A stretch of DNA of 64,000 nt, from assembly GCA_965243135.1 (NCBI GenBank), contig OZ251539.1:5280001-5344000 (forward strand), read 5' to 3'. A program made the position numbers and the translations under genes. The notes beneath the pieces are model-generated. The model ran no database searches and was not told the origin of the DNA. It worked only from the letters and a program-made list of their open reading frames with translations. Of this stretch, positions 22,379 through 37,114 are shown one piece after another. Positions within the stretch are counted from its first letter, which is position 1. Each line of letters begins with the position of its first letter. Source of the DNA: Alphaproteobacteria bacterium. GTDB taxonomy: Bacteria > Pseudomonadota > Alphaproteobacteria > MPNO01 > UBA830.

Positions 22379-25300
22379 GGTGTATCCGGCGTGCGGGGGA
22401 AGCTGTCCGCCAGCCGTAGAGGGACCGGACGACGAAGGTACATCCCCGCGTGTGCGGGGGAAGCTCGGTCCACAGCGCGTCGACCGCGTTGACGAAAGGT
22501 ACATCCCCGCGTGTGCGGGGGAAGCACGACTAGGGCGATTTGCTTCACGGTATAGTCGGGTACATCCCCGCGTGTGCGGGGGAAGCATGCCGGGGGAACG
22601 CGCAACGCATCCCCCCGGCGGTACATCCCCGCGTGTGCGGGGGAAGCTTCCGGCCCGGCCTGGAGAATCCGCCTGCTCGGGGTACATCCCCGCGTGTGCG
22701 GGGGAAGCTTTCACTGGCCGTTTCCGGTACCGCGTTTATCGGGTACATCCCCGCGTGTGCGGGGGAAGCATAGAATCTTTTGAGAAAAGAACGTTTATTA
22801 CGGGTACATCCCCGCGTGTGCGGGGGAAGCCGGATCCTGCTGTGCGCCGAGCGCGTGGCGGTCGGTACATCCCCGCGTGTGCGGGGGAAGCTGATATGAG
22901 ATTCACGGACGTTTTGGCGGTTGGGGTACATCCCCGCGTGTGCGGGGGAAGCTTCGGCCGGTAGAAAGGTCATGCATCCAGCTCAGGTACATCCCCGCGT
23001 GTGCGGGGGAAGCGCCGCGACAAACCGAGGCGACCACCTCGTCCGGGGTACATCCCCGCGTGTGCGGGGGAAGCCGAGCGATGACCGCAATTCCGAGACT
23101 GCAACCGGGTACATCCCCGCGTGTGCGGGGGAAGCCTGGCGCCGGCGGACGAACATGACGGCCCGCGCGGTACATCCCCGCGTGTGCGGGGGAAGCTTCT
23201 CCAGCGTTTGCGAGCATCACATGATGCCGGGTACATCCCCGCGTGTGCGGGGGAAGCCGTCTTCCACCGACGGCAGCCCGTGCACGATGCGGTACATCCC
23301 CGCGTGTGCGGGGGAAGCCGGTTCTGACGGCCGCGGAAGCGCGGAAGGCTGGGTACATCCCCGCGTGTGCGGGGGAAGCATGCAGACTAAGGCTTGAAAG
23401 GCTTGCGGTTTACGGTACATCCCCGCGTGTGCGGGGGAAGCCTTCCTGAAAGGATAACGGACATGACCAAGACGGGGTACATCCCCGCGTGTGCGGGGGA
23501 AGCGAGCTCGCGTCGGACCTCCTCATGCGCCTCTCGGGTACATCCCCGCGTGTGCGGGGGAAGCACCTTGAAGCTGGCCGGCTGACCCTTCGACAAAGGT
23601 ACATCCCCGCGTGTGCGGGGGAAGCTACCGGCGATAACGGCGATAACGAGAAACAAAAGGTACATCCCCGCGTGTGCGGGGGAAGCCGTGAGACTTCATA
23701 ACTCAGACTCCCATATGAGGGTACATCCCCGCGTGTGCGGGGGAAGCAAGGTGACGTGTTCGATTACTTCGACCCGGACGGGTACATCCCCGCGTGTGCG
23801 GGGGAAGCAGCCCGAACCAGTCGCGCCCGCGCTTCCGCAACGGTACATCCCCGCGTGTGCGGGGGAAGCCGCGGCCTGCGCAATCTCTTCGTCGTCAGGA
23901 AAGGTACATCCCCGCGTGTGCGGGGGAAGCCCTACGGAAGCGAGTCCCTGGTACTGCGTTTCGGGTACATCCCCGCGTGTGCGGGGGAAGCCGTCACAAC
24001 GGGAGATAAAAAGATGACGACCACGGTACATCCCCGCGTGTGCGGGGGAAGCCTGGATCGCCGACGGCGGAATGCCGTTCAACTTGGTACATCCCCGCGT
24101 GTGCGGGGGAAGCCGGAAAAACTGGTGGGACAACTGCACGCTCCGCGGTACATCCCCGCGTGTGCGGGGGAAGCTGCCGACAGCCAGAATGTCCCTGAAC
24201 CGCATCGGGTACATCCCCGCGTGTGCGGGGGAAGCTCCTCAACATGATCGAAAAGAAGGGCGTTACCAGGTACATCCCCGCGTGTGCGGGGGAAGCCGCG
24301 CTCTGACGTTTTCCGGCAATTTTGCCGAGGGTACATCCCCGCGTGTGCGGGGGAAGCGTGATGTCGACCCACAACGGGGAATCGAATCCGGGTACATCCC
24401 CGCGTGTGCGGGGGAAGCCCGCCGTTCCCGGCGGAAGTCGAACCAGCATCAGGTACATCCCCGCGTGTGCGGGGGAAGCGCGTTGCGTTCGACGATTTGC
24501 CCTTCCAGACGGGGTACATCCCCGCGTGTGCGGGGGAAGCGTGGGCGCCTACGCGCGGGAGCGCGACGCCCATGGTACATCCCCGCGTGTGCGGGGGAAG
24601 CCTCGTCCACTGCCCCTCGACCAGGAACTCCAGAGGTACATCCCCGCGTGTGCGGGGGAAGCGATAGCGAGGCCGTCGAAGAAGCGGAGGAGGGCGGTAC
24701 ATCCCCGCGTGTGCGGGGGAAGCGCCGGGCGATACCGGCGGACGTGCTGTACCACGGGTACATCCCCGCGTGTGCGGGGGAAGCCCGTCCTGGACCGCCG
24801 GGATCGTCCTGCAGCTGGGTACATCCCCGCGTGTGCGGGGGAAGCGGGATCGTCCGGGTCCGCACGGGCAAGCGCACCGGTACATCCCCGCGTGTGCGGG
24901 GGAAGCTCGAACGCCGCCTGGCGTCGCGCCGTCCGGTCGGGTACATCCCCGCGTGTGCGGGGGAAGCCAGCGTCGACCAGACCAAGCGGGACGGCTACGC
25001 GGTACATCCCCGCGTGTGCGGGGGAAGCTACGGCCGCGCGCGGGTCCAGGTGCAGACGCACGGTACATCCCCGCGTGTGCGGGGGAAGCAGCTGGCAGTT
25101 GGTGAAGGTGGACGAAATATCGGGTACATCCCCGCGTGTGCGGGGGAAGCGAAATCGCCAACCGGACGGTCAAAGCGCATCGGGGTACATCCCCGCGTGT
25201 GCGGGGGAAGCTGACGATTGCCGGCGGACGCGGACCCGCAACCGGGTACATCCCCGCGTGTGCGGGGGAAGCTCACCCGGTAGACGCAGGCGGCGCGCTT

Positions 25301-27163
25301 CGAGGGGTACATCCCCGCGTGTGCGGGGGAAGCGTCGCGGCGGCGATCTCCGCGGCATGAGCGAGGGGTACATCCCCGCGTGTGCGGGGGAAGCGACGAG
25401 GCCTGCCAGACGTCGCCGCCCGGAGAGGGTACATCCCCGCGTGTGCGGGGGAAGCGTCCCGTCCGAGGCCGACCGCGGCAGCCGGATAGGTACATCCCCG
25501 CGTGTGCGGGGGAAGCCGGTCGTCGGTCGACCCGAGAGAGATCTCCCGAGGTACATCCCCGCGTGTGCGGGGGAAGCGTCGCGCCATTCGCGTTCGCTGT
25601 AGGGCGTGAGGGTACATCCCCGCGTGTGCGGGGGAAGCCATGCAGGGAATAAAGCTTCTATACCTGACTGAGGTACATCCCCGCGTGTGCGGGGGAAGCC
25701 GCTTTGTCAATCCCTAACCGAATCAAGCTGAAGGTACATCCCCGCGTGTGCGGGGGAAGCCATCCAAGAAAGTCACTCATCGCCCCGTAGGCGGGTACAT
25801 CCCCGCGTGTGCGGGGGAAGCGCGATGGGAGCCGGCGTGATGCCGGAAGTGATCGGTACATCCCCGCGTGTGCGGGGGAAGCGTGGAGGAAGCCCGGGCA
25901 CGGCTCGGGATGATGGGTACATCCCCGCGTGTGCGGGGGAAGCTAGGCCAGTCCGCTGTCGCCGCCGAAGCCGTCCGGTACATCCCCGCGTGTGCGGGGG
26001 AAGCCGTCGACGCGGTGGTCACCGATCCGCCGTATCAGGTACATCCCCGCGTGTGCGGGGGAAGCGCGCCGGACTGGTCCGACGAGGCGCCGGTGAACGG
26101 TACATCCCCGCGTGTGCGGGGGAAGCGCGTTGCGGTCGTCGCGCGCCCACCGGGCGCCGGGTACATCCCCGCGTGTGCGGGGGAAGCGTCAGCAGGTCGA
26201 TCGTCTCCGGCTCCAGGGCGGGTACATCCCCGCGTGTGCGGGGGAAGCACCGTTCCGCACTTCGCCCGGTCCGCCGTCCAAGGTACATCCCCGCGTGTGC
26301 GGGGGAAGCGGCGATCACCGAGCGCGACGACGGGTCGGGAGCGGTACATCCCCGCGTGTGCGGGGGAAGCCGAAAGGCGTAAGGGCGACGGAGCGCGAAA
26401 TAAGGTACATCCCCGCGTGTGCGGGGGAAGCGTCGTCAGGCGGTAGATCGGCAGCTCCACCCAGGGTACATCCCCGCGTGTGCGGGGGAAGCCGCTCACC
26501 GGCGCTCGCATCGCTTTCAACACCAGGTACATCCCCGCGTGTGCGGGGGAAGCGTCTGGAGATAGCCGGCATACGACGCCAGTTGCGGTACATCCCCGCG
26601 TGTGCGGGGGAAGCCCCGCCGCACCTCCTCCAGCACACGGCGATCCAGGTACATCCCCGCGTGTGCGGGGGAAGCCGAGGGAAGTCGGGGGTCCGGACCT
26701 CGCAAGTGGGTACATCCCCGCGTGTGCGGGGGAAGCGGTGAAGGCGTTCCTGGACAACTCTCTCCGCTCGGTACATCCCCGCGTGTGCGGGGGAAGCCCG
26801 TAGACCCGCGCCACTTCCATCAACTCGTAAGGTACATCCCCGCGTGTGCGGGGGAAGCCCCGGCGCCGGCGGTCGGCCTCAACCTGACGAAGGTACATCC
26901 CCGCGTGTGCGGGGGAAGCGAGGAATTTCTCAGGGCGCCCGGGAAGACGATGGGTACATCCCCGCGTGTGCGGGGGAAGCTTCGCGGTCACTTGTCGAGC
27001 GTAGACGACGTACGGTACATCCCCGCGTGTGCGGGGGAAGCCGCGATCGGGGCCGGGGAGCGAAGGCATCCTCGGGTACATCCCCGCGTGTGCGGGGGAA
27101 GCGCGGCGACCGTGCGGGCCATCCTCGAACCGTTCGGTACATCCCCGCGTGTGCGGGGGAAGC
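22379..27163 (-). CRISPR. CRISPR array 2 (type I-E): about 78 repeats GCTTCCCCCGCACACGCGGGGATGTACC (minus strand) plus a degenerate terminal repeat; 61-bp period
   Basis: Plus-strand GGTACATCCCCGCGTGTGCGGGGGAAGC from 22437 to 27136 (count estimated from the period). A degenerate copy at 22379-22403 marks the distal end. Confidence 0.99.
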
Positions 27164-27220: not shown

Positions 27221-27537
27221 AGAGCGTGGCGGCGATCATCGCGCAATAGCCGCCTCGTGATATGCAAGCCGTCGTACTCCACCAAGTCCTTCGGCGGTTC
27301 GCCGAGCATTAGAACGCCTTGCCGGGGCGCAGCGCCCGGAGCCGCCCAAGTCATGACGACCGATCCCTGGCGATATGCGGCCCACCAGTCGTCGAGCACG
27401 CTCCAAACCCGCTCGCGCACGCCGGCGGACATGTCGGGCTGAGTGTAAACCCCGGGCGCGATCTCCAACATGCAGCTGGACAGGAAACCGCGAAAACGAG
27501 CAGGAACGTCACGGGTCACCACCACGCACATCGGCAT
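27217..27537 (-). CDS. cas2: Type I-E Cas2
   Basis: VVVTRDVPARFRGFL...LEIAPGVY...VRERVW...EYDGL. Confidence 0.95.
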   Translation of the reverse strand: MPMCVVVTRDVPARFRGFLSSCMLEIAPGVYTQPDMSAGVRERVWSVLDDWWAAYRQGSVVMTWAAPGAAPRQGVLMLGEPPKDLVEYDGLHITRRLLRDDRRHAL

Positions 27538-28393
27538 CGAACAACTCCTTAATGCGACCAATCATCGCCGGGATCAGCTTCTTGCGGCGAAACTCCGTTC
27601 CGGCCAGTCGGCGGACATGCCGTTCCAGCGGCACGGTGGGCTCGCGCTCGTAAGCCCGCGTAGCGCCGAAGGCAACCGGGACAGTCACGTCTCCCCGGTA
27701 AAGGTCCGCAATATCCAGAACGAATGCGATGCCGGAGGCTTCATGGATGAAACCAAGCTGCGGCAGTGCTCCGACGCTGGTTACGGCGATGGAAGCGGCG
27801 GCCTCCACCGCCGTCGCGGCGTGGTTGATGGCTTGATTCGGCGGATCGGCCGCTGTCGGATCCGCGCGATCGTATCTCCGCCCCTTCCAGTCGATGCCGT
27901 ATTGATCGGCAATCGTCCGATAGAGCGTCTTCATTCGAGCGCCCTCGATCCCGCGCAACACGTCGAGATCGCGATGGGGCAGGATGCGGCCCAACCGCCA
28001 AGCGTAGAGGCGTCGCGTAACGCCGAGTCGGCTTGCGTCATCTGCCCAGAGCTGGGCTTGGCGGCGGGCGATGGAGGAGTTGTCTGGGCCGAGGGGTGGA
28101 GCGGTGTATGCTCGCACCCCGTCTTCGCCCACCGCCATCAAGCAGGTTCCATGCCGCGCGCAGAGCCGCAGCGCGTCGTGGCTGACGGTGCTGCCGGGGC
28201 CGAGCAGCAGCATCGAGACCATCTGAAAGGGGATGGCGTAATCGCCCGCTTCCAGGTCGCCGCCTCCGGTCGTCTGGAAGTGCAAGGTGCCGTCTTCGAC
28301 GGAAAGATGCCCGCGCGCGAGCCAAAGCAGGCCGTGGCGGTCGGCATGCGGGATGCGTGCGGTTTCGAGCCCCAGACGACCTGCCAGCACCAT
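27509..28393 (-). CDS. cas1: Type I-E Cas1
   Basis: LLLGPGSTVSHDA, VGEDGVRAY, LRGIEGARM, LGFIH, FVLDIADLY. Confidence 0.97.
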   Translation of the reverse strand: MVLAGRLGLETARIPHADRHGLLWLARGHLSVEDGTLHFQTTGGGDLEAGDYAIPFQMVSMLLLGPGSTVSHDALRLCARHGTCLMAVGEDGVRAYTAPPLGPDNSSIARRQAQLWADDASRLGVTRRLYAWRLGRILPHRDLDVLRGIEGARMKTLYRTIADQYGIDWKGRRYDRADPTAADPPNQAINHAATAVEAAASIAVTSVGALPQLGFIHEASGIAFVLDIADLYRGDVTVPVAFGATRAYEREPTVPLERHVRRLAGTEFRRKKLIPAMIGRIKELFDADVRGGDP

Positions 28394-28427
28394 GACCGTT
28401 CTACCTTGCGTTACGTTCGAGCGACGC

Positions 28428-29318
28428 TCAGGCTGGCTTCAGCAACAACATGCCGAAGCCGAAGCCGCAGTGCCGACCGACCCCTCTGGCCAGCACGCGG
28501 GGGAAGGCTTCCGGATTGACGATTCGCAACACGCCGGAGAAACGCACTTCCGGTCGCGTGAGCCAGCAGGATTCGCGGTTTTCGCTGCCGTTGCGGAGCG
28601 GCCGGCGTAGCAAGCGGGTGGAACGCCACGAGTCGACGCGGACATTGTAGCGGTCGCGCTCTTCGTCTTGGACGAGGGCGGCGGCTTGCGGCGCATCGCC
28701 TCCCGGCGAAGAAGCGAAGCGTTCGGCGAGCCACTGGACGTAAACATGGTCGCGACTGGGCACGTCGATACCGTTCTCCGCGGCGCGCGCCGCGACGAGT
28801 TGGTATGCGTCCATTTCGCGTTGGCCCTCGGCATCAAGAACGACGGACTTCATCGGGCCGTCGCGCCGGGTCACGAGCTGCCGCTTGGCTAGCCGCCGCT
28901 TCACGGGGCATGCCCTTAGTTCGAAGCGCAGATGGAGGCTCTCGGGCCATGAGGCGGGCATGCTCTTGGAACTGAAGCGGGGCCAGTCGATCATCGTGGA
29001 GAGATCGTCGCTTGCGAGTTTGGCCACCTCGCCTAGAGCGTCGGCCGTTCGGCGGGCGTAACCCCACACCTCCAACCGAGCGTCCCGCGGGTCGTGCCGT
29101 CGTTGCTCCCGTTGGCCGAGTGGCGGCGGACAGAACGGTCGTGGAGCCTCTCGGCCGAACAAGCCGGTCATCAGCGCGTGCAAAGCATAACCCAGGTCGG
29201 CGTCGCGTGGCTTGCCGCGGCCTTCGCCCGGCGGCGTTTCCAGATAGCCTTTCGCCGCCGCCCATTCGGCGAATCTGCGTGTTTTCACCGGTAATCGCAG
29301 AAGATGGAGTTCGCTCAT
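28428..29318 (-). CDS. cas6e: Type I-E Cas6e (long, 296 aa)
   Basis: DLGYALH, FELRACPVKR, C-terminal LARGVGRHCGFGFGMLLL. Confidence 0.93.
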   Translation of the reverse strand: MSELHLLRLPVKTRRFAEWAAAKGYLETPPGEGRGKPRDADLGYALHALMTGLFGREAPRPFCPPPLGQREQRRHDPRDARLEVWGYARRTADALGEVAKLASDDLSTMIDWPRFSSKSMPASWPESLHLRFELRACPVKRRLAKRQLVTRRDGPMKSVVLDAEGQREMDAYQLVAARAAENGIDVPSRDHVYVQWLAERFASSPGGDAPQAAALVQDEERDRYNVRVDSWRSTRLLRRPLRNGSENRESCWLTRPEVRFSGVLRIVNPEAFPRVLARGVGRHCGFGFGMLLLKPA

Positions 29319-30091
29319 GACTTGTCTTCCGTGACGTTGCCGAGCTTCATCCGTCGGCGCAGGACGACCCGCTCGCCGCCGTGCAGGCGGTTTCGCCAGT
29401 CGCGTCGATCGATCACGCGCAAGGCTTGCAAACGCTTGCTGTCTGATAACGTTCGTTCGTCCGCGATCGGCAATTCGATTTCGGGTTCGGGAGAGGCGTC
29501 TCCCCGCTCGATTTCGGCCCAACGGTTCGGAAATGCAGCCGGTGCCCGTGCAAGTGCGTCGGCCAGGCAGTCGACTGCTTCAATCAATCCAACCAGTACC
29601 GGCGTGGCAGGGAGGCACGGCTTGCGGCCGAGGAACAGTGGGCGCGCAGGACGATCCAGCGCGGCCCGCAAGTCCGTTAGTGTCGGCGCTTCGTCGGCCG
29701 GATCCAGCGCAACGGCGGTCAACACGTTCGAATCGGCGCGATAGCGGCGGTAACGGATATGGGTGCCGAATCGCGCATCGCCGCCGTCCCGGTGCTCGGC
29801 GCGTCCGTTGGTGGTCCAGCCGGGGTTGCGCAGATGCTCTTGGCCGAGATCGACGGTCTGGTAATCCGGCAATTCCCGCCCCTCCCTTACCAAGGCGCTC
29901 CCTACCCGTAGGCGGTCTTGCAAGGCTTGGGTCCGGTCCCAATTCCGATGGTCGTAGCCCAGTGCGTTTGCCAGCAGTCCGGCGATCTGGCTGAGCGTCG
30001 GGAAACGGCCGGTTGGCCCGATCTGATCGATCTGCGGTCCGCCGAAGCTCATCAACGGAGCTTGGAGGTGGAGGATCAGCGCGGCCATCAC
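29315..30091 (-). CDS. cas5e: Type I-E Cas5e
   Basis: LQAPLMSFG...FPTLSQIAGLLANALG, DYQTV, PLFLGRKPCLP. Confidence 0.95.
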   Translation of the reverse strand: MMAALILHLQAPLMSFGGPQIDQIGPTGRFPTLSQIAGLLANALGYDHRNWDRTQALQDRLRVGSALVREGRELPDYQTVDLGQEHLRNPGWTTNGRAEHRDGGDARFGTHIRYRRYRADSNVLTAVALDPADEAPTLTDLRAALDRPARPLFLGRKPCLPATPVLVGLIEAVDCLADALARAPAAFPNRWAEIERGDASPEPEIELPIADERTLSDSKRLQALRVIDRRDWRNRLHGGERVVLRRRMKLGNVTEDKS

Positions 30092-31266
30092 GCTGCCTCC
30101 GCGATTTGGGCCGATGCCCAGGAAGCGAGTTCGTCAAGCGTGACTCGCTCGCCTGCGTGGGCGGGAGCCGGTTCGATCATGGTGGCGAACCTCCGATCCT
30201 CGTGTTCGCCGTACATAGCGTCGAAACGCGCCAGATAATCGTCAAGCGCCTTGGTCGCCTTGGCCTTCACTTCCCTTTTGCTCACCGGATCCATGAAAGC
30301 GTTGGCGAGCGTGCGTGGCTGCCGTTCTCCCGCCTCGGCTAGCATCAGTTCGGCGCATGCGTAAGGCGCCGTCGCCCCTAACTTTGCGCCGGGGGAGACG
30401 GTCGCGATCAGATGAACCAACCGCCGCAGTGCGCTCTTGGCCAGTTCCAGGTCGCCGGAGAGGTTCTTCGTCAGTTGCCGCAGGTCGACGACGGTATAGG
30501 CGTAGAACAGACCGCTGGTGAGTTCGGTCGTGTTGATATGGCCGGAGCCGAGTTCGCCTCCTTCCGCCACCAGATCGTCCAGGGCCGAGAAGTAGTCGGG
30601 TTCGGCCTCCTCCGCATGTACAGTGAAGCTGTGAGCGACATGGACCGCCGCATCGTAGCGGGCCATCGAATCCGAGGTCACCATGCGGCCAAACAATGCG
30701 GCGTCCACGCCGGCGCCGCGGGCGAGAGCCTTCAGATTGTCCTTGCTCTTTCTGTCCTTGAAGTAGGATTTGACTGCTTTCTTGGTCTCCGCCGGATCGT
30801 CTTTCGCGAGTTCGGCGGCGAGGTCGGTGAGGAACGCGATCTCCGGCTCTCCGAAGACGATGACTTGCTCCGTGCGCAGTCCAGCGAATGGTTCCGCCGC
30901 TTCGTCTGTTATTTCCGACGCCGTATCGCGAGCGGCTCGCGCCTTCTCGCTCTTGCCGAGGACGACGGAGCGTATGGGATCCAGAACGTTTAGAATCTGC
31001 TCCGTCGAGAGTTGGCGATCCTTCAGACGCGGTGCGATGACGTCGCTGAAAATCCTCCGCGAACGCAGTGCTTTGCCGGAATCGATCCCATCAAGCGACC
31101 ATTCGCCGCCCTGTTCGCGCCAGTGGCGCTTCAGGCATTGAGAGGATACGCGGATGCGGTCGCAGCCGCCGAACGGCAGGCGCTTTGCCCTGCCGATGTC
31201 GTCGCGGTTGAGAAGGGTGGCGGAAAAGCCGGTAAGGGTGTGAAGCTGCAGGAAATTCGTAGTCAT
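30088..31266 (-). CDS. cas7e: Type I-E Cas7e
   Basis: LQLHTL...LNRDDIGRAK...RIRVSSQCLKRHWR, DAALFGRM, DYFSALDDL. Confidence 0.96.
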   Translation of the reverse strand: MTTNFLQLHTLTGFSATLLNRDDIGRAKRLPFGGCDRIRVSSQCLKRHWREQGGEWSLDGIDSGKALRSRRIFSDVIAPRLKDRQLSTEQILNVLDPIRSVVLGKSEKARAARDTASEITDEAAEPFAGLRTEQVIVFGEPEIAFLTDLAAELAKDDPAETKKAVKSYFKDRKSKDNLKALARGAGVDAALFGRMVTSDSMARYDAAVHVAHSFTVHAEEAEPDYFSALDDLVAEGGELGSGHINTTELTSGLFYAYTVVDLRQLTKNLSGDLELAKSALRRLVHLIATVSPGAKLGATAPYACAELMLAEAGERQPRTLANAFMDPVSKREVKAKATKALDDYLARFDAMYGEHEDRRFATMIEPAPAHAGERVTLDELASWASAQIAEAA

Positions 31267-31288
31267 GGGGCACGTCTCCGGTTGGGGT

Positions 31289-31861
31289 TCAGGATGTTGC
31301 CGCTTGTACCCGGAAGTAGTCGCGGGCGAGCCGGTGGGTTACGGTATTGGGGGGGCGGATTTTCAGGCCGCGGACGCCGGGGGCGATGCGGCCGAGGATT
31401 AGCTCCGTCGGCTCGCGCCAGTTCGCTTTCTGCCCGGCGCCGGAGAGCCAGGCGGCGGCGATTCGGGTTTCGCGAGCCAAGTCCTCGTCCTTGGCCCGCA
31501 AGAAGCGAACGAAGCGCGCTTCCGCGTATCCGGTTTTGGCGAGTGCCGCCCCGAAGGTCTCGTCGCTCCTGTGCGGGTCGGGCGCGGCTTCGGCCATGGC
31601 GCGAAGCAGGCTGGCCCAGGCGAGATCGACCCTGTCGTTGTCGCGGTCCTCCGGTTCGCGCCACGCCGCCGGTACGTTCCTGAGATAGAAATCCCAGAAG
31701 CTCGGGGGGAACTCTTTCCATGCCATTCGGCGAAGCTCGGCCAGACGGCCGGTGCCGATCCGGTCCGCGTTCAGTGCGCCCGAGACAGTGGCGACGACGC
31801 GCCCGATGAATTCCGGCGTCTTGTCGGGAGCAGGAGTTTCAAGTATCGCTCTATCGTTCAT
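31289..31861 (-). CDS. cse2: Type I-E Cas11/Cse2
   Basis: LAELRR, FGAALA...EARFVRFLRA, LARDYF; sits between cas8e and cas7e. Confidence 0.85.
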   Translation of the reverse strand: MNDRAILETPAPDKTPEFIGRVVATVSGALNADRIGTGRLAELRRMAWKEFPPSFWDFYLRNVPAAWREPEDRDNDRVDLAWASLLRAMAEAAPDPHRSDETFGAALAKTGYAEARFVRFLRAKDEDLARETRIAAAWLSGAGQKANWREPTELILGRIAPGVRGLKIRPPNTVTHRLARDYFRVQAATS

Positions 31862-33414
31862 TCCGTGTCCTCCTGTGCGTCGTGGCTAAATGCGTCGGGC
31901 AGGCATTTGCGCAAGCCTCCGTAGAATACGGCCTCGGAGGCCGCGCGCGCTTTCTCGCGTCTCGCGCCGGGCGCGGCGGTGGCCCAGACCTCGCGGGCAA
32001 GGCGCTCGGCCTGCTCGCGCAGGATCTTTTGCCAGTCGGCCGCCTCGAATCCCCGCTCCGTCGTCTCGGTGCCGAACAGGCAATCGAAAAACCGTTCATC
32101 TACGGCGCGGTCATACCTATCCGTGACCGTGTTTGCGCTGCTATCCTGAAAATCCGGATTCTCCGGCCCTTGCAGATAGACGAGCGCGGCTCTCCGGAGC
32201 ACCTTCCGCGCCTCGCCAGCATGGTCAACCATCTTCTTCGAGAGCATTGCAAGCGGCGTCGGCTCATCGTCATCGTCCGGGTCGGATTCTGCAGTCAACT
32301 GCGCAGCGATCGAATACGGCAACGGAATCACCCGCTCGTGCAGGCCCTCCGTCTTGCCCCGCCCGCGAACCATGACGGCCATGTGGATTTCCGAATCCTG
32401 GTCGACCTCCACGTTTAGATCCTTTAACGCAAGCGGCGGCAGGAGCTCGCCGCGTTGCAGCAGGATCCTTTGGGCCAAGCGATAATCGAAGCCGCCGGCG
32501 CCGACGGTCAGTGCGGACGCGCCCTCTTTGGTCCGATCGACAGGAACCCACGGATCGGCCAGGTTCCCATTCAGTGCTTGGGCGTTCACCCTCGCGTGCT
32601 CCGATGGCCTGCCGACCGCGCGAAGCCGCGCGTCCTGACCGACCTTTAGTCGAACGCGGCGGCAGACCTCGATGAAGTAGGGGTCAAGTTCGTCGAGGCT
32701 TATCTGTCCGTCGTTGTCCCACGGCTTGAGCCAGGTGAGCGCCAAACCATCTCGTCTTCGGAAGAGACTGTCCCCGGCCCGTCTGAGCACGTCATCCCTT
32801 CGGGCGAGCAGCATGCGGCTGGCACGGCAAACGCGCGGCCCCCAGCGCGGCCCCGGTCGCCGATCCACCAAAACCCGGCTGGAAAAGCCACCGTTCATGC
32901 GCGCAATACCGTAGTTTTTGGGACCAGAGTAGCCCTGAGTTGTCTGCATGGTCAGCAAGGCGTAAAGCCAATGGTGGGGTGCGCCTCCGGTCGCCTGCGC
33001 CTGTTTGCGATCATGGTTCTTGGCCGTTACCGGAACGTCGAGCATATCCGGCGTGCGGGCGCATTCGTTGAAGCTTCCGATGCATGTTGTCGGCGGCTGC
33101 AGGAACGCTGGTTTCGTTGGGTCGGAGACGGCGAGACTCCACGCCGTGGCGACGCATCTGGGAGTCAGCGCGGCGATCAGGCTGTGCCACTCGTCCGCCT
33201 CCGTCGGCAGGGTCTCCCGGCTCCCGTTGTGCAAGGCGACCGCCCCGAGCTGCGCAAGGAACTGATACCAAGCCTGCGCCTGATGCGCAGCGAGACCGTG
33301 GAAGGAATCGATGGCATCGCCGACGAGCCCGGCGTAGAGCATCGGCAAGGTTACGGAATCGCCGTTGCCGTCTCGAACAACGGGGATTATGGAACAAGTC
33401 AGCAGGTCGTGCAT
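31858..33414 (-). CDS. cas8e: Type I-E large subunit Cas8e/Cse1
   Basis: HQAQAWYQFLAQL, PAFLQPP, NYGIARMNGG, LDPYFIEVCRRVRL, GKTEGLHER; operon position. Confidence 0.88.
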   Translation of the reverse strand: MHDLLTCSIIPVVRDGNGDSVTLPMLYAGLVGDAIDSFHGLAAHQAQAWYQFLAQLGAVALHNGSRETLPTEADEWHSLIAALTPRCVATAWSLAVSDPTKPAFLQPPTTCIGSFNECARTPDMLDVPVTAKNHDRKQAQATGGAPHHWLYALLTMQTTQGYSGPKNYGIARMNGGFSSRVLVDRRPGPRWGPRVCRASRMLLARRDDVLRRAGDSLFRRRDGLALTWLKPWDNDGQISLDELDPYFIEVCRRVRLKVGQDARLRAVGRPSEHARVNAQALNGNLADPWVPVDRTKEGASALTVGAGGFDYRLAQRILLQRGELLPPLALKDLNVEVDQDSEIHMAVMVRGRGKTEGLHERVIPLPYSIAAQLTAESDPDDDDEPTPLAMLSKKMVDHAGEARKVLRRAALVYLQGPENPDFQDSSANTVTDRYDRAVDERFFDCLFGTETTERGFEAADWQKILREQAERLAREVWATAAPGARREKARAASEAVFYGGLRKCLPDAFSHDAQEDTE

Positions 33415-33530
33415 GGCTCGGTGCTCTTAAGGGTGGTCGGTCGCTTGATGGCCGGAAAGATGGCGGCCCGCATGCGCCGCCTTGCCATGAGTCGGGCAGG
33501 TCGCTGCGATAATGAACAAGTCGCCATCAT
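33399..33530 (-). CDS. Putative 43-aa small ORF upstream of and overlapping cas8e
   Basis: Strong [11 protein letters not shown] then ATGATG; MMATCSLSQRPARLMARRRMRAAIFPAIKRPTTLKSTEPCTTC. Confidence 0.4.
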   Translation of the reverse strand: MMATCSLSQRPARLMARRRMRAAIFPAIKRPTTLKSTEPCTTC

Positions 33531-33602
33531 TGACAAATCTCCTTCTGGTTGCAGGTTTCGCGGCAGCGTCCTTACCGCCCAGCATACATGCCTGAGGGAA
33601 AA

Positions 33603-33630
33603 ATTATAACCTGTCATTATACCTGTTAAG
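33603..33630 (-). promoter_or_regulatory. Leftward promoter region of the Cascade operon (two TATAAT boxes); predicted target of the mini-array crRNA
   Basis: Minus strand ...ACAGG TATAAT GACAGGT TATAAT TTT...; plus strand AAC + CTGTCATTATACCTGT matches the mini-array spacer. Confidence 0.7.
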
Positions 33631-33643
33631 AAAAATTTTTTTG

Positions 33644-33672
33644 TTGACCGCGAACCGACGGTGAGATATTCT
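33644..33672 (+). promoter_or_regulatory. Sigma70 promoter of the mini-array
   Basis: TTGACC-N17-TATTCT with an A/T-tract UP element just upstream. Confidence 0.8.
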
Positions 33673-33673
33673 G

Positions 33674-33763
33674 GCCTGCCCCGGCCTCTCGGGGATGAAC
33701 CGCTGACGTTATAGCTGTCCATGCAGCCGTTGGTGCTTCCCCCGCATGTGCGGGGACTTGTGG
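33674..33763 (+). ncRNA. Single-spacer CRISPR mini-array (crRNA-like regulatory RNA, CreR/CreA-like)
   Basis: Repeat 1 GCCTGCCCCGGCCTCTCGGGGATGAACCG (33674-33702), 32-nt spacer (33703-33734), repeat 2 GCTTCCCCCGCATGTGCGGGGA... (from 33735). Both keep the I-E hairpin. Confidence 0.88.
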
Positions 33764-33790
33764 AACGCGTAGAGAGCAGGTCGGGAACCA

Positions 33791-36373
33791 TCAATCGTCG
33801 ACTCTTGCCAAGCCCAGACGATCATATAGGTAACGGTGTGCGCCCATCCGGAAGCGAATTTCGCCGTCGGATGCAGAGATTTCCGACGGTTCGGCATCGA
33901 GGGGCAACTCGTTGACCATCCATCCCGGCAGCGTAAACTCCCGAACCCGTGCGCCGAAGGGGCCATGCAGGGGCTCAGGCAGTTCGATTCTACGGTCGTC
34001 CAATCCCAACCGCGTCATGATCGAGCGGTCGTCCTGCGGACAATTTGCGAGCAGAGATTCGAGCCAGTCGAGCAGTACCGAGCGCGCTGTCATGCCCTCG
34101 CCGAGCGCCGCGCCGAGCGCTGTCTCCAAGTGCGCGTCCCACGGCGGGCCGAGCTCTCTCGCGAGTTCGCACAGGCTTTCACCATGCGTCGCGGCCTCGA
34201 CCAGCGCGCGATTGTCGTCCGGGATGTGAATGGCGCCACGTTGCCTCAACCATCGCTCCGTCGCCAACACGCCGATCATGTTTCGGTAAACCCGGCCGAG
34301 GCCCATCGGCACTTGCCCGCGAACCTCGCCCTTCGCGTTGACATATTTGACCAGTTCCTCCGCAGTTGGCGCCAGCACCTCGACCGTCGGCGTCTCGAAG
34401 CCGATTGGGCGGGAGAGAACGTGACGGTGCAACCGGCCGATGCGTTGCAGCAGCACGTCGCCCGGCGCGATGTCCGTAATCAGCCGGTCGGCGCATATGT
34501 CGAGCGATTGCTCCGCCGTCTGCGTGGTCACGGCGACGATGCCAGCTCGAGATTCCTTCCCGAACGCGCGTTCCAGAACCTTATCCAGCTGCCGCCGGTC
34601 TTTCGGCGCGTAGCGACTGTGGTGCGGTGTGGCTACACCGTTGCAACGGAGCAGCGGCGCGCCGATGTCTTCCAATTGCCGAAAGGTATCTTGGGCGTCA
34701 CGCACGGTGTTGCGGATGAACAGCACGGCAGCGCCGTTCTCCGCCTGCCGTTTGACTTCCGCCAAGGCCGAACCGAGCGCCCCGTGATCAAGCAGCCGGA
34801 CGCTCACTCGCTTCTCCCGGCCGTCTCTGGGAAGAGGCCGCAACCCCTCGCCCGTTCGTTGAACGGCCGGGTAGGGCACTGCGGCGGCTTCCGCAAGGGT
34901 TGGCGACTCATGTTTTTCCACCCGTGCGCCGGATGCCAGAAAGCGCAGGCGCGCTACTGCGCCCAATGTCGCCGACATCAGCAGCGCATGGCCGCCGGCG
35001 GCCGAATGCTGATCGAGCACATTGCGCAGAATCTCGGTCATATAGGCGTCCGAGGCGTGCACCTCGTCGATGATCAACAGCAGGCGCAGCATCGGGCTGG
35101 AGCGGAGATGCGCGTGCCTCACCTGCAAACCGCCGAGCAGCAACTGGTCCACTGTCCCGACCATCGCTGCGCCGCTGAGATACCGTTTCGGGCGTTCCAC
35201 GGCCCATGCGCGGTCGACGTCCGTCTCGTCGGGCCAGAGCACCTTGGCCTGTTCCGGCAGGATCCGGCCCTCTTCGGCGTCGACTCGCAGATAGCCAGGA
35301 ACGGCCAACCCCACCGGCGGCGCCTCGTGGCCGAACCATCTTTGCAAGATTTCCGCGATCCGTCGGTGGATCTGCACGGCCGCCGCGCGGGTCGGCAGCG
35401 CGAAATAGAAGCCTTCCACCTCGCCAGCCCGGAACAGCCGAAGGAAATGCAGCACCGCGGCTTCGGTCTTTCCAGATCCGGTTTCCGCTTCCAGGGTCAC
35501 GACCTGCCCGTTCTTGGGCAGCGACGCGTTCCGCAGCGCCGCTTGCGCCGGCCGCGGCGTCGGCAGGTCCGGGAAGAGATCGGCGAAGGCGGTGGGGACC
35601 GTTGTTGCCGCTCGCCGCGCAACGCTCGAATCGAGCCAACGGCTGCGCAGCAGGTTGGCGGCCGCCATGCGTGCCCACGGAATCCGCTCGTTGCCGGTCG
35701 GTGCGCCTTGATGGGGAAACATAAAAACGCTCTGGTCCGAGCCGAGCCAGTCTGCGAGCGTGATCAGGCCAGCCAAAGCATGCATGAAGCGCGGCTCGGA
35801 CGGCAAAGTCGCCGCGGCTTCGTTGAACGCCAGAGGGAACATGGCTTTGAGAGCGTTCGCCGTTTCGGCGAGCGCCGACATGGGCGAATAGCCGTTCCGT
35901 TCGTTCCAGAGGCTCGGGTCCGGCCGGGCGCCGCCGTACGGCAAGCTTCCGTGATGGGCGAGCACGGCGTTCCACCAGGTAGCCTCGTCCTCTTCGTTGG
36001 CGAACCAGCACTTCCAGTCCCTTCTACGCAGGGCCTTGCGAACGCCTTTTGACAGCGGGCCTGTCGACGAATCGCAGACGATGGACCAGATCGGACCGAT
36101 ATGTCCGGCGTCCGGCTTTTCCCGGTGCAGCTTTGCCTGGAAACCATGATTGACTTTGCCAGCGTCGTGCAAACCGATGAAGAAGCCCGTTCTCTCGATA
36201 TCAATGACGTTGAGTCGACGTTTCGCCAACGCCTCCAGTCTGCGCCGAATGGTCGCAACGTTCATCAGCCCCTCGGCGACAGCGGCGACGTCGATGCAGT
36301 GATCGATCAGCTCGAGGAAAAGGGAAGAATCCGTCTCCGACTCTCGTACCGATTTGGCCCAGGCAACGCTCAT
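33791..36373 (-). CDS. cas3: Cas3 HD nuclease-helicase
   Basis: LIDHCIDVA, LHDAGK, AHHG, LADWLGS, AETGSGKTEA, IDEVH, MSAT, QRIGRLHRH. Confidence 0.97.
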   Translation of the reverse strand: MSVAWAKSVRESETDSSLFLELIDHCIDVAAVAEGLMNVATIRRRLEALAKRRLNVIDIERTGFFIGLHDAGKVNHGFQAKLHREKPDAGHIGPIWSIVCDSSTGPLSKGVRKALRRRDWKCWFANEEDEATWWNAVLAHHGSLPYGGARPDPSLWNERNGYSPMSALAETANALKAMFPLAFNEAAATLPSEPRFMHALAGLITLADWLGSDQSVFMFPHQGAPTGNERIPWARMAAANLLRSRWLDSSVARRAATTVPTAFADLFPDLPTPRPAQAALRNASLPKNGQVVTLEAETGSGKTEAAVLHFLRLFRAGEVEGFYFALPTRAAAVQIHRRIAEILQRWFGHEAPPVGLAVPGYLRVDAEEGRILPEQAKVLWPDETDVDRAWAVERPKRYLSGAAMVGTVDQLLLGGLQVRHAHLRSSPMLRLLLIIDEVHASDAYMTEILRNVLDQHSAAGGHALLMSATLGAVARLRFLASGARVEKHESPTLAEAAAVPYPAVQRTGEGLRPLPRDGREKRVSVRLLDHGALGSALAEVKRQAENGAAVLFIRNTVRDAQDTFRQLEDIGAPLLRCNGVATPHHSRYAPKDRRQLDKVLERAFGKESRAGIVAVTTQTAEQSLDICADRLITDIAPGDVLLQRIGRLHRHVLSRPIGFETPTVEVLAPTAEELVKYVNAKGEVRGQVPMGLGRVYRNMIGVLATERWLRQRGAIHIPDDNRALVEAATHGESLCELARELGPPWDAHLETALGAALGEGMTARSVLLDWLESLLANCPQDDRSIMTRLGLDDRRIELPEPLHGPFGARVREFTLPGWMVNELPLDAEPSEISASDGEIRFRMGAHRYLYDRLGLARVDD

Positions 36374-37114
36374 TTTCAAAATCCCTCAACTCATTCGGAG
36401 CGTGCACCTTAGCGCGTATTTCACTGGATCCAATCTGGCGGAGGCGTTTGCGACGCGCCATTATTGTCAGCTATCCATCCGGTCGGGCGCCCCGCAATTC
36501 AGCTGGCCGCCCGCCGACAGATTCGCAAGGGTCTCGCAGAAGGTCTCGAGCAGGACCGGACGCAATGCGTAGCGGCGCTCCCCATAGTCGGGCAGTCGTG
36601 ATTCGATCAGCGCGAGGATATGGGGACGGGAGGTTGTCGATCCGAATTCAGGGCAGGGCTTGGTGTCGTTGATTGCCAGCGGCATGTTGCGGCAGCGGCT
36701 CCCGGTCGAGATTGTCCGGCTGACCCCTGCGCCGGGATCGGAGGCGGATACTTGGAAGATAGCCCGCACCGAGCGTAGCTCTATTTTTTGCCGACCCCGC
36801 CGCTGAAAGCGTCCCTCGCAGGCTCGACGGCAACCTCAGGCAGCACGGGAACCTCCAAGAAGTTCCATGCCGCCGGATCAGCGCCAGGAAGTCCAAGCTT
36901 TTGGGTAACCACATGATTTAGTGGAATTTCTTCACCGGAAAGACCAGCATGTGGTCTTCTCCGACCAAGCAGGTAGACCAGATCTGCTACCTAAAATTAT
37001 GTCAATAAAGGGCTTTTATTGGAAGAAAAAATTTGCCGCAGATTGTCGACACCGTCGGGTTGACCGGAAAGCCGTATTCGGCGAAATTGAATCTCTCGAA
37101 GGAACAACAACACC

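Follow-up and report, generated by a model that had tools for sequence, protein, structure and literature searches.

[quoted passage not shown] Judged by these matches, the genes for Cascade, Cas6e and Cas3 are intact. The spacers of the main CRISPR array are 33 nt long in 75 cases and 34 nt in two, and the handle of its repeat reads ATGTACC+N. Between cas3 and cas8e lies an intergenic region of 376 nt that harbors a single repeat-spacer-repeat unit, hereafter the mini-array. This unit is oriented divergently from cas8e and convergently towards the 3' end of cas3, with its second repeat ending 28 nt before the cas3 stop codon.

Table 1. Features of the type I-E locus and of the cas3-cas8e intergenic region (positions in the window)
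Feature	Coordinates	Strand	Details
Main CRISPR array	22437..27163	-	78 identical 28-nt repeats, 77 spacers
cse2, cas7, cas5, cas6e, cas1	27509..31861	-	Cascade, processing, adaptation; Pfam match each; cas6e PF08798, 3.6e-22
cas8e	31858..33414	-	Pfam CRISPR_Cse1, 5.7e-8; 738 homologues
Proximal promoter-like site	33509..33536	-	TTGTCA-N16-CATTAT; from scan; segment common to L002 and L021 (alignment by eye)
Putative distal cas8e promoter	33603..33629	-	-35 TTAACA 33629..33624, 15-nt spacer, -10 TATAAT 33608..33603
Target	33608..33642	+	PAM AAC 33608-33610, protospacer 33611-33642; paired part 33611-33626
Mini-array promoter-like site	33644..33672	+	TTGACC-N17-TATTCT; from promoter scan, 9/12
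Repeat-spacer-repeat unit (mini-array)	33674..33763	+	between cas3 and cas8e
psi-repeat 1 (R1)	33674..33702	+	21/28 versus the 28-nt main-array repeat
Predicted mature crRNA-like RNA	33695..33755	+	61 nt: 8-nt handle, 32-nt spacer, 21-nt hairpin
psi-spacer	33703..33734	+	32 nt; first 16 nt partly complementary to promoter site
psi-repeat 2 (R2)	33735..33763	+	20/28 versus the main-array repeat
cas3	33791..36379	-	862 aa; Pfam Cas3_HD 1.9e-28, Cas3-like_C_2 1.5e-26

The two repeats of the mini-array have degenerated in different ways. R1 retains a CCCCG/CGGGG stem (33679-33683 and 33690-33694; hairpin 33679-33694) followed by an 8-nt 5' handle, ATGAACCG (33695-33702), that differs from the ATGTACC of the main array at one of seven positions, and its degenerate 5' end overlaps the -10 element of the mini-array promoter and the predicted transcription start. 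In R2, the first 12 nt and a GCGGGGA segment are the same as in the main repeat and the hairpin is retained (stem 33740-33745/33750-33755), with the handle part gone. An earlier note, made from the sequence alone, had described this architecture, namely, a first repeat matching at 21 of 28 positions with stem and handle, a canonical 32-nt spacer, a second repeat with a hairpin and no handle, and a plus-strand promoter; direct reading of the repeat and spacer, the 20/28 comparison and RNA fold for R2, and a promoter scan that recovers the promoter-like site bear out each of these elements.

The minimum-energy fold of the mini-array transcript contains both hairpins; its fold energy is unremarkable (z = -1.5) and is not counted here as evidence. 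The promoter scan of the region returned two sites compared with 0.4 expected in shuffled sequences. Transcription is predicted to start near 33678-33680, some 6-8 nt past the promoter, so that the RNA would begin with the R1 hairpin, which would fit the degenerate 5' end of this repeat. Because Cas6e of type I-E systems canonically cuts at the 3' base of each repeat hairpin, the predicted mature product is a 61-nt crRNA-like RNA, the 3' end of which is expected to be set by the cut after 33755 in R2. No terminator was found after the mini-array, a search of Rfam (evalue mode) over 33300-33900 gave no relevant match, and the four open reading frames overlapping the intergenic region had no match in Pfam.

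The candidate target of the psi-spacer lies 92 nt upstream of it. Next to the AAC trinucleotide, the paired stretch CTGTCATTATACCTGT (33611-33626) agrees with the spacer at 13 of its 16 positions, the mismatches being those at 4, 6 and 12, and the pairing collapses after position 16. This is the site that the earlier note had singled out, with the same number of matches, two of the mismatches at positions 6 and 12, and the same point of collapse. The third mismatch, at position 4, falls in the type I-E seed, which the note had not stressed, and could weaken binding.

The target is embedded in an AT-rich segment: GC content is 24% in the 50 nt from 33600 to 33649 compared with roughly 60-65% around it. 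The note had also claimed that the target overlaps two minus-strand TATAAT boxes facing cas8e. Both hexamers are present, at 33608..33603 and 33621..33616, and this part of the claim stands; their role as promoter elements is a putative assignment. In the arrangement that we favor, the outer hexamer is the -10 element and overlaps the PAM, and the -35 element TTAACA occupies protospacer positions 14-19, as it does in two homologous loci described below (L010 and L011). This distal promoter was assigned by reading; its 15-nt spacing is short, and the scan, which requires 16-18 nt, did not call it. The scan did call a proximal minus-strand site, at 33536..33509, downstream of the target, which would escape blocking at the target.

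The match between the spacer and its target is not a product of chance. We scored the matches at the 15 non-sixth positions within the first 17 nt of the spacer, a rule that follows the known geometry of Cascade and was chosen after the site had been seen. Across 12,206,636 genome positions, only three non-self sites score at least 13/15; the intergenic target is one of them, and neither of the other two has an AAN flank. The number of such sites expected for the 376-nt intergenic region is about 1-2e-4. Isolated repeat-like sites at 20/28 number about a dozen in the whole 6.1-Mb genome, and pairs of sites at 20-21/28 or more, spaced by 61 nt on one strand, are limited genome-wide to R1 with R2 and a second small array elsewhere.

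We compared the intergenic DNA with 60 taxonomic relatives and found no match beyond the window's own genome. The module is thus not conserved along taxonomic lines, and homologous loci were therefore retrieved through Cas8e. There were 738 Cas8e matches, of which 38 were aligned, and 79 genomic and 80 metagenomic loci were fetched. Nine loci at 55-62% Cas8e identity (L003, L004, L010, L011, L012, L013, L014, L018 and L026), which come from Acidobacteriota and a gammaproteobacterial metagenome-assembled genome, carry an antisense mini-array in the same place and orientation as in the window. The first repeat of these units has a hairpin and a handle, which reads ATGGACC+N except for variants in L010, L014 and L026; the spacer measures about 20 or 32-33 nt; and the second repeat has a hairpin and no handle. 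By reading, the spacer is only about 20 nt long in four of the ten antisense loci. The main-array handle is ATGGACC in the four relatives in which it was read (L013, L004, L018 and L010), and the mini-array handle is the same in the first three and differs at one position in L010.

In the Cas8e tree, all ten antisense units, including that of the window, fall within one clade of 21 rows with a support of 100/100. The other 11 rows of this clade lack the unit, and these include the nearest kin of the window, L002 (81% Cas8e identity), L021 (76%) and L016. The intergenic regions of L002 and L021 are about 230 nt shorter than that of the window, with which they have the proximal segment 33430-33560 in common. 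This pattern of presence and absence implies that the unit has been lost, or has moved, repeatedly. The tree was built without L020 and L025, the contigs of which are cut upstream, and without the short L108. The Cas8e lineage as a whole reaches Acidobacteriota, Gammaproteobacteria and Rhodothermota. The metagenomic loci are mostly distant (33-43% identity) and added only four further mini-arrays; the hairpin-plus-handle filter used for detection is conservative, and degenerate units like that of L019 escape it.

If the mini-arrays guide Cascade to a local site, spacer and target should change together from locus to locus, with positions 6 and 12 free, which is the check that the earlier note had proposed. 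The predicted result was obtained. In eight of the ten antisense loci, the window included, the top-scoring site within 800 nt on both strands is a partial target flanked by AAT (seven loci) or AAC (the window), located on the strand of the spacer, 66-175 nt upstream. Of the remaining two, L014 has a weak AAC-flanked target (8/15) and a spacer that fits the target of L018 better, and L003 has a mini-array and no recognizable target. For the nine pairs, the table of which leaves out L003, a spacer matches its own target at 12.3 of 15 positions on average compared with 7.8 for cross pairs, and in 20,000 permutations the total never rose to that of the own pairs; the loci being homologous, these trials are not fully independent.

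At positions 1 to 5, the bases match in 9, 9, 9, 6 and 8 of the nine pairs, respectively; at positions 6 to 10, in 1, 9, 8, 4 and 9; and at positions 11, 12, 13 and 18, in 8, 1, 8 and 1. Positions 24-32 match at near-random levels, and pairing is never full-length in the relatives. The covarying letters are diverse: the matches at position 1 involve all four bases, and those at positions 2, 5, 9, 11, 13 and 14 involve three. Mismatches outside the sixth positions occur too, at least one within positions 1-11 in eight of the nine pairs of the antisense clade; position 4, mismatched in the window, is also mismatched in L004 and L011, and position 5 in L010.

In sister clades, the mini-array is found in the sense orientation. 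Among the nine mini-arrays of these more distant loci, the top site is flanked by AAC (seven) or AAT (one) in eight (L022, L027, L029, L067, L078, L100, L145 and L149), and the mismatches in these eight units are again concentrated at positions 6, 12 and 18. The ninth, L156, has a top site without an AAY flank and was left out of the PAM tally. Altogether, position 12 is matched in only one of 17 pairs. A mismatch periodicity of six nucleotides is specific to Cascade. Overall, we regard the mini-array as a genuine, non-random feature on which selection acts in its clade.

The promoter context of the targets is also shared. Read in the sense of cas8e, the target of L010 lies in TTGACA-N17-TACACT, with the -35 element at protospacer positions 14-19 and the PAM beside the -10 element; that of L004 lies in TTGAAA-N17-TAATAT; TTTACA occupies positions 14-19 in L011; and a -35 element directly adjoins the PAM in L014 and L018. 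Each of these five targets covers or borders recognizable -35/-10 hexamers that face cas8e, and the register corresponds to that of the window, as assigned by reading.

Natural variants of the locus were read from DNA contigs of four runs, aligned to 33300-34300. A 619-nt contig (X4) differs from the window at only three positions, 33616, 33622 and 33627, which correspond to protospacer positions 6, 12 and 17. Positions 6 and 12 are still mismatched to the spacer in this variant, and position 17 has gained a match; on the other strand, the change at 33627 converts TTAACA to TTGACA, and that at 33616 abolishes the inner TATAAT. A second contig (X9), about 95% identical to the window, has the same three changes and a 12-nt insertion after 33604. 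Of its 42 differences, 5 are not listed; the listed ones include changes in the promoter and, within R1, in the 5' end and the loop, and they spare the segment from 33687 to 33768. In a third contig (X5), the 66 nt from 33567 to 33632, around the target, have diverged and the mini-array aligns, which may or may not contradict the model.

An AAC or AAT flank accompanies 17 of the 17 called targets. In E. coli, the nucleotide that follows the 28-nt repeat derives from the last base of the PAM. The nucleotide in this position of the window's main array is C in 36 units, G in 20, T in 19 and A in two (n = 77), and in four relatives, A is found in 0 of 113 units. From this distribution of the 29th nucleotide and the conservation of the flank, rather than from protospacers, we infer AAC as a working PAM. 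Comparison of the main array with a phage collection gave only repeat-like or weak matches, none informative for the PAM. A BLAST search of the window's own genome yielded a perfect 33/33 self-match for spacer 43 (flank AG+A) and another match of 30/33, and neither of them has an AAB flank or is informative for the PAM.

Taken together, these observations make it probable that the mini-array is a CreR-type regulatory mini-CRISPR of the type I-E system that autorepresses the Cascade operon. The plus-strand promoter would transcribe psi-R1, the psi-spacer and psi-R2 in a direction that diverges from cas8e and converges with cas3; Cas6e would cut after each hairpin, releasing the 61-nt crRNA-like RNA, which would then be loaded into Cascade. 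So guided, Cascade would recognize AAC at 33608-33610 and pair over about 16 nt, between the -35 and -10 elements of the putative promoter facing cas8e. Because pairing stops after position 16, the R-loop would stay partial, and Cascade would act as a roadblock that does not license Cas3, as is suggested by established knowledge of type I-E systems and by the work on CreR. In type I-E systems, short complementarity does not license cleavage by Cas3, and the complementarity found here, ending after 16 positions, is probably too short for it. By analogy, the outcome would be negative feedback, with free Cascade lowering transcription of the Cascade operon and with repression relieved when Cascade is titrated by many crRNAs or inhibited by an anti-CRISPR protein. 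That the circuit senses free Cascade or anti-CRISPR activity, as the published work on the Salmonella type I-E CreR would suggest, we likewise infer by this analogy.

Other explanations deserve to be weighed against this one. The mini-array might be an inert relic in this particular genome, descended from a unit that once functioned or that arose by accident, its crRNA no longer made or no longer binding, with the cas8e operon driven from the proximal promoter. The seed mismatch at position 4, the one-position difference between the mini-array and main-array handles, and the absence of the module from the nearest relatives L002, L021 and L016 would all be expected of a relic; furthermore, the mini-array of L003 persists without a target, and the proximal promoter-like site is common to L002 and L021. 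Yet the hairpins of both repeats remain intact, as do the handle, the 32-nt spacing and the match with its AAC flank, and the match is far above chance. Moreover, the three differences of X4 leave the pairing unreduced, and the listed differences of X9 (5 of 42 not being listed) avoid the segment from 33687 to 33768. On this evidence, we hold an inert relic to be unlikely.

Alternatively, the main role of the repressed promoter might be to control a toxin, either a small RNA or a peptide, that would be encoded in the 180-nt leader between the target and cas8e and would arrest the cell when Cascade is lost or inhibited, a logic for which CreA/CreT systems have been published. The leader is indeed long, with about 197 nt from target to ATG compared with 24-114 nt in seven of nine loci, and it contains a 43-codon open reading frame (33530..33402) behind AAGGAG with an Arg-rich stretch, according to a hand translation. 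However, the 43-aa product has no Pfam match, the frame extends over only four codons in the homologous segment of L002, and in most relatives the interval from target to cas8e is too short to encode a toxin, which makes control of cas8e itself the conserved role. A toxin acting as RNA would escape such sequence comparisons; even so, we consider such a guard quite improbable here. Still less should be expected of antisense transcription as the sole function, whereby the plus-strand promoter would act on the 3' end of cas3 through interference or an antisense RNA and the hairpins would be incidental. The promoter does point into cas3, the short distance between R2 and the cas3 stop codon and the failure to find a terminator fit this idea, and such transcription could coexist with a CreR-type function. 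By itself, however, it leaves unexplained the PAM-flanked target, the covariation, the periodicity at positions 6, 12 and 18, and the conserved combination of hairpin and handle.

The preferred reading, a CreR-type unit, has close counterparts in the literature. The earlier note had acknowledged that the concept is known, and it is: publications describe it, with tests in Salmonella and E. coli. In the type I-E system of Salmonella enterica, CreR retains the 8-nt handle in psi-R1 and the 3' hairpin part in psi-R2; 15 nt of creR recur in a site that is flanked by AAG and lies about 140 bp upstream of casA; and CreR represses PcasA 8.6-fold in E. coli, an effect that is abolished by mutation of the guide and relieved by AcrIE8 (bioRxiv 10.1101/2023.03.10.532045). 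The window unit resembles CreR as a degenerate mini-CRISPR inside a type I-E cas locus in which the psi-R1 handle and the 3' hairpin part of psi-R2 are kept, the spacer partly matches, through its 5' part, a site with a known or putative PAM upstream of casA/cas8e, and autorepression of Cascade is expected. The two differ in the PAM (AAC here, and AAT or AAC in the relatives, versus AAG), in the pairing (13/16 with mismatches at 4, 6 and 12 versus 15 consecutive nt), and in the Cas8e lineage and host group; the window unit, furthermore, is known from sequence alone.

More broadly, regulatory mini-arrays have been reported in about 19% of bacterial type I-E loci, typically between cas3 and cas8 and transcribed opposite to cas3, with PAM-flanked partial targets in the cas8 promoter and tolerated mismatches at sixth positions (bioRxiv 10.1101/2023.03.03.530964, PMC10120712). 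The window unit shares with these mini-arrays the long intergenic region, the orientation opposite to cas3, a spacer-proximal repeat that is better kept than the distal one, sixth-position mismatches, and a target with a putative PAM in what is probably the cas8 promoter. In contrast to the published units, R1 is also strongly degenerate here (21/28), and a BLASTN-based pipeline could therefore miss it.

In the CreTA modules of types I-B and I-F, CreA provides a partially complementary crRNA-like guide that turns Cascade into a transcriptional repressor, which is also the role proposed for Cascade here; CreA, however, guards a toxin gene, whereas no toxin is recognizable in the window and the target promoter of most relatives drives cas8e directly. 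Finally, phage-borne Cracr arrays mimic CreR (bioRxiv 10.1101/2024.10.29.618823) and are comparable to the window unit in RNA architecture and in the logic of targeting a promoter in type I-E systems. Cracr resides on phages or plasmids and shuts the host system down, whereas the window unit is chromosomal and located inside the cas operon. Thus, with sequence-level features that fit and with a putative AAC PAM, the window unit is a further, probably functional example of a published class and not a new mechanism.

A more far-reaching interpretation can be offered as a tentative one, which we think rather doubtful at present. The unit of about 230 bp, consisting of the divergent promoters, the embedded target and the psi-CRISPR, might be a self-contained regulatory cassette that type I-E loci of different phyla acquire and lose in one piece, with targets that are tuned on purpose. 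The notion of a cassette comes from the presence of the unit in the window and its absence from the three nearest Cas8e relatives; that of tuning comes from the non-sixth mismatches in eight of the nine pairs, together with the observation that all targets have AAY PAMs overlapping the -10 element. If the targets are indeed tuned, their low affinity would set a threshold, and the circuit would report the concentration of free Cascade instead of shutting the operon off.

The window unit leaves the published concept of Cascade autorepression unchanged. What it would add is a comparatively supported example of such RNA-guided autorepression, as proposed here, in an environmental alphaproteobacterium. 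The clade to which it belongs provides a natural mutational map for the binding of Cascade to promoters, with AAY as the PAM, positions 1-3, 5, 7, 8, 10, 11 and 13 paired, and positions 6, 12 and 18 free. For genome annotation, the implication is that wherever the intergenic region between cas3 and cas8e is long, it should be searched for degenerate units with a single spacer, since standard tools do not detect them.

Sense-oriented mini-arrays, which are degenerate one-spacer CRISPR units, are also present upstream of cas8e in sister Cas8e clades (loci L022, L027, L029, L067, L078, L100, L145 and L149 of the set retrieved through Cas8e homologues). Their partial targets, that is, incomplete matches to the mini-array spacer, are again flanked by AAC or AAT and mismatched at protospacer positions 6, 12 and 18. 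Among the 17 spacer-target pairs from the window and the retrieved loci, position 6 is matched in four, and position 12 in only one, a rate at the edge of the neutral-drift expectation of about 1 in 4.

Comparison with L002 and L021, the two closest loci, divides the region between cas3 and cas8e into two parts. Its proximal segment, which includes a promoter-like site, is common to all three, whereas the distal ~230 nt, comprising both the target and the mini-array, are found only in the window. The motif CAGCATACA recurs near the promoter region in the intergenic regions of two other loci, L004 and L010, its relative place in L010 being different from that in the window; this motif could be a regulator site or a chance occurrence. 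The cas8e leader contains an Arg-rich open reading frame (ORF) without a Pfam match, which ends within the start of cas8e. In the homologous segment of L002, the ribosome-binding site and the ATG are retained, and a stop follows after 4 codons.

Features of the cas3-cas8e intergenic region and of the genome outside the window (G000, the genome that contains the window; G000 coordinates are genome positions)
Feature	Coordinates	Strand	Remarks
Proximal intergenic segment	window 33430-33560		
Promoter-like site	window 33536..33509		
Motif CAGCATACA (TGTATGCTG in the cas8e sense)	window 33584-33592		
cas8e leader ORF	window 33402-33530	minus	43 codons; preceded by AAGGAG
Chromosomal match to main-array spacer 43	G000 4133743-4133775		perfect, 33/33
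Second short degenerate array	G000 4813018-4813201	minus	4 repeat-like units; spacing 61 nt

The unit of the main array consists of a 28-nt repeat and 33 nt, both in the window and in the related loci L161-L164 and L170. A second, short array elsewhere in the genome is degenerate, its units agreeing with the main repeat at 25, 24, 23 and 19 of 28 positions. The first of the 33 nt in the main-array unit is nearly always C, G or T, with A found in 2 of the 77 units in the window and in none of the 113 in the relatives. One of these two exceptions is spacer 43, which has a perfect match elsewhere in the chromosome, flanked by AG + A and not by AAB. This match is possibly a tolerated self-target.
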